A DNA stretch of 64,000 nt, taken from positions 1,440,001-1,504,000 of the forward strand of contig CBDFJR010000005.1 of assembly GCA_965248535.1 (NCBI GenBank), written 5' to 3'. The stretch comes from Phormidesmis sp. (lineage in GTDB: Bacteria > Cyanobacteriota > Cyanobacteriia > Leptolyngbyales > Leptolyngbyaceae). The notes under the pieces are model-generated. The model saw only the letters and a list, made by a program, of their open reading frames with translations. It was not told where the DNA came from and made no database searches. The number at the start of each line of letters is the position of its first letter. Position 1 is the first letter of the stretch. This document shows positions 38,229 to 63,603 of this stretch, piece by piece. A program made the position numbers and the translations under genes.

Positions 38229-38450
38229 GCTAGGACTCCGATAGAGCAACACGAGGCTGCTCTTAAAGACCCGCAGTGGAATGTGCTGGGTGGGTTTGGG
38301 CGCGAGGTGAAGACAATCTCCGATCGCTAGACTGCGTTCATGCAGTTTTCTAATTGCCAACCTGCTCAATATGATGTCAACACGCAAGCATGAATGACAT
38401 CAGAGAGTCGAGACTCAATGGGATCAAGATGCTCTCCATAATCGATCTAC

Positions 38451-38693
38451 CCGATCGCAGGTCACATTCCCGGAGCGGTTAACTATCCCTGGCAAGACGC
38501 GACTGACGCAAATGGGTTGATTCGTTCGGCGCGAGAACAGCGCGATCGCTGGGCATCCTTGTAATCTGCGGATGAGATTGTGGTCTATTGTGGGTCAGGG
38601 GTCACGGCTTGCGTCAATCTGTTGTCTTTAGCGATCGCAGACATTGACACCGGAAAGCTCTATGCAGGTAGCTGGAGTGATTGGTGTTCTTAT
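38451..38693 (+). pseudogene. C-terminal fragment of a rhodanese/3-mercaptopyruvate sulfurtransferase (SseA-like)
   Basis: PIAGHIPGAVNYPW...RWASL*SADEIVVYCGSGVTAC...LYAGSWSDWCSY; in-frame TAA at 38562-38564; 5' half not found. Confidence 0.85.
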
Positions 38694-39213
38694 AGAAACG
38701 GGAGAGCCTGAGAACCCGCAAAACCCATCGTGCTTCAGCCGTGGGATGTAGCGAGGGTTCTCGCGCCTGCGGCAGCAGGCAGAGTCCAGCAATCTTCATG
38801 AAATCGCACTCCGATTTGTGATAATTTTGTACTTGTGGAAAGGTAATCAACCACTTTAAAAACCTTGCTGTCGAGAGACACGCTGAACCTTGAAAATTGA
38901 ATCTATGCGGTTCTACTGCATTTTTCTAGACTCCCCCTCGCAGTAGGTAAAAGATTTAGAGGAGCTAGACAAACAGCATTTTGAGGCCTATCTGCTTCAA
39001 ACTTAAACAGGACTTGCGGCGCTCAGTGCTGAAGACGGGTTTCCCGTCGCAGGCAACTGAGTAAGAGAAAAGCAAATAGGGTAGGGCATACCCGAATTAA
39101 CGCTTGGGGAGAATCCCACCTCTGGTCTAGATGACGCAAGGACTCTAGGTTAAGTGGTTTCATTGAACCAAGAATCCCACGGCTCCGCAAAGCTAAAGCC
39201 GTGGGAGTGTCAA
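38694..39213 (+). mobile_element. Non-autonomous IS200/IS605-family element (no tnpA/tnpB ORF)
   Basis: Preceded by TTAT; left hairpin 38724-38745 with 5' AAAA; right hairpin 39175-39206 with 5' GAAT; ends TCAA; no target duplication; removal restores both flanking gene ends. Confidence 0.85.
38885..38896 (+). promoter_or_regulatory. boxA-like antitermination motif
   Basis: GAACCTTGAAAA, the same as the boxA of cyanobacterial rRNA spacers; an extended -10-like TGTGATAAT lies at 38817-38825. Confidence 0.5.
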
Positions 39214-39233
39214 CTTTGACTAACCAACCGCAG
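39077..39233 (+). ncRNA. Putative TnpB omega-RNA scaffold plus flanking guide
   Basis: GGGTAGGGCATACCCGAATTAACGCTTGGGGAGA...TTGAACCAAGAATCCC...GGGAGTGTCAA resembles cyanobacterial tnpB 3' ends; the guide would be the ~20 nt after TCAA. Confidence 0.6.
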
Positions 39234-40376
39234 CGATCGCACAGTTTCGAGGATCACGTCAGCGGCGCGATCGAGGTCTTCACCCGTGTTGAATCGCCCA
39301 ATCCCCACCCGAATCGACGCATAGGCTAGCTTGTCAGAAAGCCCCAACGCTTGAAGGACATGAGACGGCTCAATCTTGGCAGATGTGCAGGCAGAACCCG
39401 ACGATACCGCGATCGCTGGCTGCACGCCCAACAAAAGAGCTTGCCCATCTACGCCGTCTACGCTGAGGTTGAGATTTCCCGGTAGGCGTTGGGTCGGGTG
39501 TCCATTTAAGTGAACGCCGTCTAGCTGACACACTCGCTGCCACAGACGATCGCGCAATTTGGTTAAGCGCAGTGACTCGGCTGGCATCTCTGCGATCGCT
39601 AGCTCAACCGCTTTGGCAAACCCGACGATCTGGGGCGGATAGAGAGTGCCCGATCGCAGCCCCCGCTCGTGGCCGCCGCCGTGCATTTGAGGCGCGATTT
39701 GAACTCTAGGATTTCGTCGCCGCACATACAACGCGCCGATGCCCTTGGGGCCATAGACTTTGTGAGCCGTCAGAGACATTAAATCGATCTGCATTGCCTC
39801 GACATCTAGCGGAATTTTTCCGATCGCTTGCGCTGCGTCAGTGTGAAATAGCACATGGTGCTTGTGACAGAGATGCCCGATCGCGGCTAAAGGCTGCAAC
39901 ACGCCAATCTCATTATTAGCCGCCATGATCGACACCAAAATCGTGTCCGATCGCAGGGTCTTTTCTAACTCATTCAGATTGACTAAACCATCGGGTTCTA
40001 TGGGCAAAATGGTGACTTCAAACCCTAACAATTGCAGATAACGACCCGGATCAAGAACAGCATTATGCTCTGTCTGAAGGGTAACAATGTGTCGTCCTCG
40101 ATCGAAAGACGCTTCAGCAACACCCTTAATCGCCAGATTGTTGGCTTCGGTGGCACCACTCGTAAACACAATCTCTTTAGGGGTCGCGTTAATCGAATCT
40201 GCCAGAGTGGTTCGGGCTTGCTGAATCGCGGCTTCTGCCTCCCACCCATAGAGGTGCCCCCCGCTCGACGGGTTGCCAAACTGTTGAGTGAAATAGGGCA
40301 CCATGGCGGCTAGCACCCGATCATCTACGGGCGTAGTCGCTTGATTATCAAGATAGATCGGACGTTGAGCCATCAT
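39210..40376 (-). CDS. iscS: Cysteine desulfurase (IscS/NifS)
   Basis: YLDNQATTP, FTSGATEANN, AHKVYGPKG, SSGSACTS. Confidence 0.93.
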   Translation of the reverse strand: MMAQRPIYLDNQATTPVDDRVLAAMVPYFTQQFGNPSSGGHLYGWEAEAAIQQARTTLADSINATPKEIVFTSGATEANNLAIKGVAEASFDRGRHIVTLQTEHNAVLDPGRYLQLLGFEVTILPIEPDGLVNLNELEKTLRSDTILVSIMAANNEIGVLQPLAAIGHLCHKHHVLFHTDAAQAIGKIPLDVEAMQIDLMSLTAHKVYGPKGIGALYVRRRNPRVQIAPQMHGGGHERGLRSGTLYPPQIVGFAKAVELAIAEMPAESLRLTKLRDRLWQRVCQLDGVHLNGHPTQRLPGNLNLSVDGVDGQALLLGVQPAIAVSSGSACTSAKIEPSHVLQALGLSDKLAYASIRVGIGRFNTGEDLDRAADVILETVRSLRLVSQS

Positions 40377-63418: not shown

Positions 63419-63516
63419 GTGACTCGGATCTATGCGATCGCGACACCCAAATCTTGTCAGGGCCGGAAGGCAGCAGCAATACGGGATGCTCACGGTAGGC
63501 GTAGTCTCCGGGTCAC
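63419..63516 (+). ncRNA. ffs: Signal recognition particle RNA (4.5S)
   Basis: TCAGGGCCGGAAGGCAGCAGC helix-8 motif; terminal stem GTGACTCGG/CCGGGTCAC; TATTCT -10 upstream and a T-run downstream. Confidence 0.95.
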
Positions 63517-63603
63517 TTTTTTTGGGGCGGTAAACCCCCGTGGTCAGTCCTTCAGCTTTTTGCGTATCCTGGAAGAAATCGACGACATAGGAGCCTAAAA
63601 CAG

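Follow-up and report, generated by a model that had tools for sequence, protein, structure and literature searches.

The DNA analysed here, a stretch of 64,000 nucleotides from a Phormidesmis sp. genome (assembly GCA_965248535.1, contig CBDFJR010000005.1, positions 1,440,001 to 1,504,000 of the forward strand), is called the window below. Its positions 38694-39213 are occupied by a 520-bp element present in five copies in the 5.03-Mb genome. The element is composed of a left end (LE) closely related to that of a resident insertion sequence (IS), of two RNA modules, and of a right end (RE) (Table 1). Module A (38817-38977) is an extended -10 promoter followed by a structured RNA domain of ~145 nt (domain A), while module B is an omega-RNA scaffold that abuts the RE.

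Three full copies span 38694-39213 with 97-98% identity and lie at unrelated loci. Two further copies, 93% identical, start at about 38832-38845 and are devoid of LE. The sequence TTAT is found directly before AGAAA... in 4/4 cases, which are the three full copies and a resident IS605 carrying tnpA and tnpB (contig C2, 2302809-2304574). This IS605 codes for a Y1 TnpA (134 aa, PF01797) and for TnpB, ends with TCAA, and has an LE that is 96% identical over 99 nt to the one of the element. The RE reads TCAA in all full-length copies with an assembled right end and CCAA in one family member; the flanks that follow are unrelated. Both ends have subterminal hairpins in place of terminal inverted repeats. 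The RE hairpin (39175-84 with 39197-206) folds with z = -5.1, and a 15-nt block is common to LE and RE. The loop of the RE hairpin at 39185-39196 (CCGCAAAGCTAA) is the reverse complement of TTAGCTTTGCGG, the loop of the three other hairpin-bearing copies, a difference that looks like a loop inversion within the palindrome. No open reading frame (ORF) with protein similarity was detected by tblastx inside the element. Nothing in the genome resembles 38790-39000 at the protein level, and degenerate tnpA/tnpB coding sequence was rejected as its origin. Taken alone, the identity of 38694-39213 as a protein-gene-less, non-autonomous element of the IS200/IS605 family (PATE type) is very probable.

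Table 1. Features of the element and of its borders, in window positions.
Feature	Position	Strand	Remarks
TTAT target / transposon-adjacent motif	38690-38693	+	immediately 5' of the element
Left end (LE), nested imperfect hairpin	38694-38786	+	common to the resident IS605; DNA fold computed
Promoter: weak -35 ATGAAA and extended -10 (TGTGATAATTT)	38798-38827	+	consensus scan and homologue comparison
P1 hairpin and pseudoknot PK1, A-rich linker between	38835-38865	+	P1: 38835-38 with 38851-54; PK1: 38841-43 with 38863-65
P2 hairpin, GNRA-like loop	38869-38880	+	87.4% of cells paired; 4/4 pairs change on both sides
Core multi-pseudoknot	38882-38977	+	closed by S4; holds S3, S0, S1, S2
S4	38882-85 with 38974-77	+	80% paired; pair 38882-38977 GC 9 / GU 6 / UA 4 / AU 3 (25 sequences)
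boxA-like 12-mer GAACCTTGAAAA	38885-38896	+	last base of S4, junction AACCUU, 5' strand of S3
S3	38892-96 with 38921-25	+	91.7% paired; central pair CG 49 / AU 18 / UA 3 (75 sequences)
S0	38898-904 with 38952-58	+	98.7% paired (75 distinct sequences)
Alternative hairpin, then U-rich run	38905-38921	+	38905-11 with 38915-21; mutually exclusive with S1 and S3
S1 (stem 1 plus a U-G pair, 8 bp)	38912-19 with 38940-47	+	97.8% paired (75 distinct sequences)
S2 (stem 2 plus 2 bp)	38925-39 with 38959-69	+	stem 2: 97.3% paired, 6/9 pairs compensatory (75 distinct sequences)
Variable hairpin P4	38980-39001	+	folds in 20/25 homologues, absent in 5
Linker hairpin P5	39014-39075	+	39014-17 with 39072-75; loop holds a 48-nt inserted hairpin repeat, 39019-39066
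Omega-RNA scaffold (module B), RE hairpin, terminal TCAA	39076-39213	+	RE hairpin: 39175-84 with 39197-206; B-profile search, alignments
Presumed guide, after TnpB omega RNAs	39214-39233	+	read from the flank; length presumed

A preliminary description of the window, made from its letters only, had drawn two crossing stems in domain A whose pairing should covary in homologues, and a hairpin further downstream at 38980-39001. Stem 1 (CTACTGC 38913-38919 with GCAGTAG 38940-38946) and stem 2 (TCTAGACTCC 38925-38934 with GGAGCTAGA 38961-38969, with one bulged A) are indeed present, cross each other and both covary. The downstream hairpin (P4) exists as drawn, and its absence from a fifth of the homologues compared indicates that it is dispensable in the family. 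The pairing was assessed in two alignments. In a MAFFT-only alignment of 35 homologues, 91.8% of the cells are paired, and sliding the partners lowers this to 38-40%; stem 1 (8 bp) is 98.6% paired with 5/8 pairs changed on both sides, and stem 2 is 96.3% paired with 4/7 pairs changed on both sides. The second alignment was guided by a covariance model of P1, P2, S0 and S1 only, stem 2 being left out, and contains 78 type-I members (75 distinct sequences). There, 93.9% of the cells are paired (31-43% with slid partners), both sides vary in 23 of 32 pairs, and none of 500 shuffles reaches the observed pairing. The further helices S3, S4, PK1 and a 2-bp extension of S2 came from a mutual-information scan of 66 full units. 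The extension (38938-39 with 38959-60) is 95.8% paired (AU 26 / CG 22 / GC 17 and UA 60 / CG 10) and makes S2 abut both S1 and S0. P1 occurs as GTGG/CCAC, ACAGG/CCTGT or GCGG/CCGC, with pair types GC 29 / CG 18 and UA 25 / AU 20 among the 75 sequences, and the PK1 pair 38841-38865 is AU in 34 and GC in 28. G-U pairs are frequent (e.g. UG 72/75, GU 74/75), which assigns the fold to the + strand.

On these comparative grounds 38882-38977 is predicted to fold into a double pseudoknot that is compact and closed; ahead of it lie a small pseudoknot of the H type (P1/PK1) and the hairpin P2. As a structured RNA motif the leader is well supported. It comprises about seven helices, of which three or four are pseudoknotted, and its junctions hold invariant unpaired nucleotides. 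Single-sequence folding of domain A is no better than that of shuffles (z = +0.72), so that support for the structure comes from comparison and not from energy. Rfam 15 has no match on 38817-39001 at gathering score or E <= 10, nor on domain A of eight homologous loci at E <= 1. Thirteen sequences form a second subtype, in which the promoter, P1, P2, the boxA-like run, S0, the junctions and S1 are all retained; the short S1 loop of this subtype can pair, as judged by eye, with the tail as GCUU/AAGC or GCAC/GUGC. The alternative hairpin listed in Table 1 is conserved as well, with 91.8% of the cells paired in the 75 sequences, against 26-61% when slid, and its pair 38908-38918 is CG 40 / GC 12 / GU 10. 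It occurs in the nested minimum-energy fold and was scored as terminator-like in the window, while the run that follows contains few U in most members (3-4 of 8 positions in 58 of 78). Position 38918 covaries both with 38941 (S1) and with 38908 (alternative hairpin). In the linker towards module B, the P5 pair 39017-39072 is CG 41 / GC 15 / TA 5; like P4, P5 is counted as dispensable. The 48-nt insert in the P5 loop is a GC-rich nested hairpin, an independent small repeat that most homologues do not have. The same 48-mer stands alone, 100% identical, at contig C5:460122-460169 of this genome (G000), and many copies are found in relatives, for example five in G006.

Domain A is preceded by a promoter. 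The consensus scan of 38500-39400 retrieved a single sigma-70-like site, composed of ATGAAA, 16 nt, and GATAAT with an upstream TG. This count alone is not significant, since shuffles give 0.7 +/- 0.7 sites; significance comes from the homologues, whose 88 distinct stretches upstream have TANNNT at this place in 81 cases, against 29.9 of 88 expected from mononucleotide shuffles. Fifty have TG at the extended -10 position. The hexamer ends 1-11 nt before the start of the RNA model (3-7 nt in 76 of the 81), and the retention of its positions 1, 2 and 6 with a varying middle is the signature of a -10 box. The extended -10-like TGTGATAAT reported at 38817-38825 in the preliminary description is present, and a -10 box at this place is kept in the family.

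The B profile (nhmmer) matches the 3' ends of five tnpB genes of a single subfamily in this genome. In addition, a frame of module B still reads ...GHTRINAWGE..., aligned as a remnant of the TnpB motif ...GTVGHTG..NAWGE.... The homology of the right ~140 nt to the tnpB 3' ends of the resident subfamily identifies them as an omega-RNA scaffold. In module B, a hairpin whose GGGCA loop is invariant is joined by a long and irregular stem with a GCAA tetraloop at its tip, by the RE hairpin and by ...GGGAGUGUCAA; this is the layout of the TnpB omega-RNA core. Compensatory changes occur in 38 of 62 predicted pairs, mostly in B, and the top mutual-information pairs lie in B helices. A long-range pairing of GAC (38968-70) with GUC (39209-11), proposed by RNAalifold, was not retained, being in competition with the covarying stem 2 and disrupted in one homologue. 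The TnpBs of this genome are 62-75% identical to those TnpBs whose genes have the 3' ends most similar to B. An IS with tnpB as its only gene, from this TnpB subfamily (405-aa frame), is found just past the end of the window (C5:1505230-1506662); its LE is 78% like 38690-38765, and at the right it ends in a B-like sequence. In Lyngbya sp. PCC 8106 (L114:643-713), the second-subtype module B scores 26.4 bits with RAGATH-18, which falls short of the gathering score (44.9); the guides of IS607 TnpBs derive from this RNA family.

The flanks of the five copies, where the guide would be read, all differ, and their 24-nt sequences have no second match in the genome beyond the 13-17 nt expected by chance. 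Regulatory guides of the TldR-like type were rejected, as five flanks without another genomic target fit homing and not regulation.

Modules A and B are found together in a large number of cyanobacteria. A+B units were identified in 19 of 61 related genomes and, with two candidates scored per genome, in 51 of 401 genomes of the class, about one in eight (34 of 169 genera); the covariance model of A with strict filters retrieved 13 of 151 genomes. A pattern scan of public genomes yielded at least 120 stretches, 80 of them with DNA. At least 48 carry A, all from cyanobacteria, and the other 32 of the 80 are chance matches in other phyla. Carriers of A among the matches listed include Nostoc, Microcoleus, Lyngbya PCC 8106, Dolichospermum, Microcystis, Mastigocoleus, Pseudanabaena and Calothrix, and B lies 30-110 nt downstream of A in 46 of the 48 A-bearing loci among the matches listed. 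The identity of module A is 70-90% across many cyanobacterial families. No tnpB was found beside 22 A-bearing loci, whose neighbours are unrelated housekeeping genes, and none of the 42 ORFs scanned against Pfam, out of 69 listed, is a TnpB. In this genome the A profile (nhmmer) detects only the five copies of the element and no tnpB-bearing IS. The possibility that domain A is the promoter or 5' untranslated region of a tnpB-bearing parent was rejected for that reason and from the lack of any A...tnpB...B arrangement. The only 2.1-kb gap between halves of A, in one relative (G002:C93), is a group II intron. Versions of B linked to tnpB and mini-elements with B only occur in other cyanobacteria.

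Contigs from relatives in four RNA libraries (four studies) cover A (38840-38985) and B (39072-39178), and some join A to B without the 48-nt insert. The parts left uncovered (flanks and 48-nt insert) are uninformative. The summed word depth reaches ~2500 in one microbial-mat RNA run. Contigs of relatives continue past ...GGGAGTGTCAA into their flanks, with loose ends at 39178; contigs cannot show RNA ends, and DNA carry-over is possible. The locus of this genome itself was not found in the RNA runs (word shares 0.04-0.05).

The account that we favour, and hold to be probable as a whole, is that of a gene-less PATE which has its own promoter and the knotted domain A, makes an omega RNA used in trans, and uses A as a biogenesis and stability module. 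By analogy with IS608, ISDra2 and ISGst, the TnpA of the resident IS605 would move the element in trans at TTAT sites. The promoter would give rise to one RNA of ~380 nt that starts at about 38834 and runs through the right end into the flank, which would be the guide, as in known omega RNAs. A TnpB of the resident subfamily would, likewise by analogy, bind B in trans with that flank as its guide and cut the emptied TTAT site, after which recombination would restore the element. Domain A would act in cis and replace the tnpB mRNA context lost from the parent IS, providing the untranslated precursor with a promoter-proximal 5' end that resists nucleases and folds correctly; it may be trimmed when TnpB binds, as is the 5' region of the ISDra2 omega RNA. 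This role of domain A, taken alone, is proposed only tentatively. A gene-less element has no tnpB mRNA, out of which TnpB normally carves its guide. The A+B family appears to solve guide production by means of its own promoter and a large conserved leader fold. Such a leader could be a natural module for guide-RNA expression or processing, of practical interest for TnpB editors.

Stand-alone omega RNAs were reportedly described by Altae-Tran and colleagues in 2021. This work is summarised in PMC10691335, and gene-less IS200/IS605 elements (PATEs) whose omega RNAs act in trans are known from Geobacillus (10.1101/2023.03.14.532601). The element resembles PATEs in having transposon ends without a protein gene and an omega-RNA scaffold abutting the right end, and in its need for TnpA and TnpB from other copies in the same genome. 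It differs by its conserved internal promoter and a multi-pseudoknot 5' domain of ~145 nt, not derived from tnpB and present in many cyanobacterial families. The ISDra2 omega RNA is likewise made of the tnpB 3' end plus the right end, with additional sequence 5' of the core. According to PMC10097598, that 5' region is processed and dispensable, and -5..-3 pair with -103..-105. The corresponding pseudoknot here would link the last scaffold bases to a hairpin loop ~125 nt upstream: by analogy with ISDra2, UGUC (39208-11) may pair with GGCA (39085-88), both sides being invariant in the family. The ISDra2 5' region is tnpB coding sequence, disordered and dispensable, whereas here it is a conserved structured domain. 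IStrons (10.1101/2023.11.20.567912), which combine a group I intron with an IS605/IS607 element and its omega RNA, also have a structured RNA on the left and a guide RNA on the right, and PATE derivatives of them exist. Domain A differs from them in being only ~145 nt long, behind its own promoter and without group I intron signature; the group I intron model RF00028 has no match at E <= 10 in 38300-39400. In one relative (G056, L024:1952-2210) a group I intron (RF00028, 60.2 bits, above the gathering score) lies ~100 nt downstream of an A+B unit, probably by coincidence, such as a tRNA intron. The Nezha MITE (a miniature transposable element with inverted repeats) was considered as an IS200/IS605 relative and rejected, being in the partial text of PMC3184786 an unrelated MITE of 130-170 bp with terminal inverted and direct repeats.

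The preliminary description had ranked this locus as the best candidate in the window for an undescribed system. That holds for part of it: gene-less elements with trans-acting omega RNAs are already published, while no description of the conserved 5' domain or of the A+B family was found in the literature passages and search listings covered. A paper on the Nodularia transcriptome speaks of IS families only. The type of element is thus known, and domain A appears to be undescribed as far as Rfam and literature searches reach.

Several observations weigh against the account of a biogenesis and stability module in a trans-served PATE. A simple stabiliser would not obviously call for as many as seven helices, for junctions with invariant nucleotides and for an alternative hairpin that is conserved too; these traits point to something more specific. 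A likeness of 15 nt to the boxA and D4 of rRNA operons (GAACCTTGAAAACTG in some members) is left unexplained by it and is unlikely to be pure chance. No resident tnpB 3' end is closely B-like (best nhmmer E 9e-12, ~60-65% identity by eye), so that recognition by TnpB in trans is putative. The B-only mini-elements of relatives indicate that A is not needed for mobility. Finally, the RNA evidence comes from relatives, in the form of assembled contigs that may contain DNA and that show neither ends nor strand; one of them extends 255 nt upstream of the proposed start.

In view of the invariant junctions, the double pseudoknot and the conserved alternative fold, domain A could represent a novel class of functional RNA that guide-RNA-only transposons acquired, namely a ribozyme that cleaves itself or a switch that responds to a ligand or protein. 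This is on the whole unlikely. If true, the new RNA class would make or regulate the TnpB guide independently of tnpB mRNA, with the two exclusive folds as its working parts.

In its riboswitch-like or protein-responsive form, domain A would set the amount of guide RNA by choosing between the alternative hairpin and the pseudoknot. Both mutually exclusive structures are conserved, 38918 covaries with a partner in each of them, and the junction nucleotides are invariant. Yet the alternative hairpin lies within the fold, so that the full fold cannot form before the polymerase has passed the hairpin, and the U-run behind it is weak in most members. The three-way covariation comes from perhaps 2-3 evolutionary events and could reflect a base triple or a folding intermediate, and no conserved gene context hints at a ligand. 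A sensor or switch is quite improbable. The leader is in any event well suited as a case on which to test conformational switching of RNA.

As a self-cleaving ribozyme belonging to some undescribed class, domain A would free a guide RNA with a defined 5' end. The compact multi-pseudoknot fold with invariant unpaired junction nucleotides, the lack of an Rfam family match for domain A, and its position within a mobile element, where the RNA directly downstream has to be processed at its 5' end, are all compatible with such an activity. Against it, no known ribozyme model matches, a cleavage site is not identifiable, and the TnpB of ISDra2 can itself process the 5' end (PMC10278001). RNA contigs moreover bridge A and B, and a ribozyme at this place is very doubtful.

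A boxB-boxA antiterminator of cyanobacterial rRNA spacers is said to have been described by Iteman and colleagues in 2000. The preliminary description read the 12-mer at 38885-38896 as this rRNA-spacer boxA and suggested Nus-dependent antitermination, as in CRISPR arrays. Loading of NusB/NusE on it would make the polymerase resistant to termination and allow read-through into the omega RNA. The first part of this reading stands in so far as GAACCTTGAAAA is identical (12/12) to the canonical boxA of the cyanobacterial internal transcribed spacer, which is followed by D4 (CTGCATA) according to PMC8461337. The genome's own boxA sequences differ: the 12-mer matches that of its rRNA spacer (GAACCATGAAAA) at 11/12 positions and that of its leader (GAACCAAGACAA) at 9/12. 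In that spacer, GAACCATGAAAACTGCATAG is read after a hairpin. The 12-mer also comes after a small hairpin, P2, in the way that boxA comes after boxB, ...CTG follows in some members as in D4, NusB is present in the genome, and the terminator-like hairpin lies 9 nt downstream. The exact 12-mer occurs five times in the genome, against ~0.6 by chance, and only in the five copies of the element.

Its nucleotides are, however, part of the conserved fold, unlike those of the rRNA-spacer motif. Position 1 (G38885) pairs in S4 and positions 8-12 (38892-96) pair with 38921-25. Position 10 covaries with its partner 38923, A or C being matched by U or G (CG 49, AU 18, UA 3 of 75). The family consensus is CTG-M-ACCTTGA-M-AA, and position 2 is A, C or T. 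Insertions after position 2 are tolerated: the junction CTGM/ACCTTG (38885/38886) is a recurrent insertion site (L046, L047, L018, L087, L090, L096, L048) that holds differing small hairpins in at least six copies and, in G002:C93, the 2.1-kb group II intron, with an ORF of 542 aa for a reverse transcriptase/maturase-HNH protein. The run downstream of the terminator-like hairpin is U-poor, as described above. A search for Rho (PF07497) found none in this genome, which is 99.76% complete; used as a control on other genomes, it detected Rho in nine bacteria and not in Synechococcus elongatus. With no Rho found, the rationale from CRISPR arrays does not carry over. Pairing of the 12-mer, its covariation, the insertions and the lack of a detected Rho together make a Nus-dependent function unlikely, and a functional boxA has a poor chance of being the right reading. 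The best guess is that the 12-mer is a structural part of the fold and not a Nus-factor site. Note that a perfect 12-mer match to boxA can thus be a structural coincidence or a mimic, which calls for caution in motif-based annotation.

That the interior has no function and is what a decayed IS left behind is hardly credible: the element is gene-less, B keeps a remnant of the TnpB frame and LE was lost in two copies, yet A is conserved across many cyanobacterial families, the compensatory changes in domain A and the conserved -10 box contradict a remnant, and the interior has no protein-level similarity. The absence of tnpA/tnpB similarity, the conserved promoter, the pseudoknotted RNA and the omega-RNA scaffold bear out instead the earlier suggestion of an RNA-only cassette.

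The region at the left border of the element, 38400-38711, is a fragment of a rhodanese/sulfurtransferase gene (...VVYCGSGVTACV...LYAGSWSDWCSY) that has an in-frame stop and is devoid of its N-terminal part; its frame now terminates within the LE. A scan of the window for tRNA and tmRNA genes gave none, and a small bacterial signal recognition particle RNA is coded at 63421-63517 (RF00169, 57 bits).

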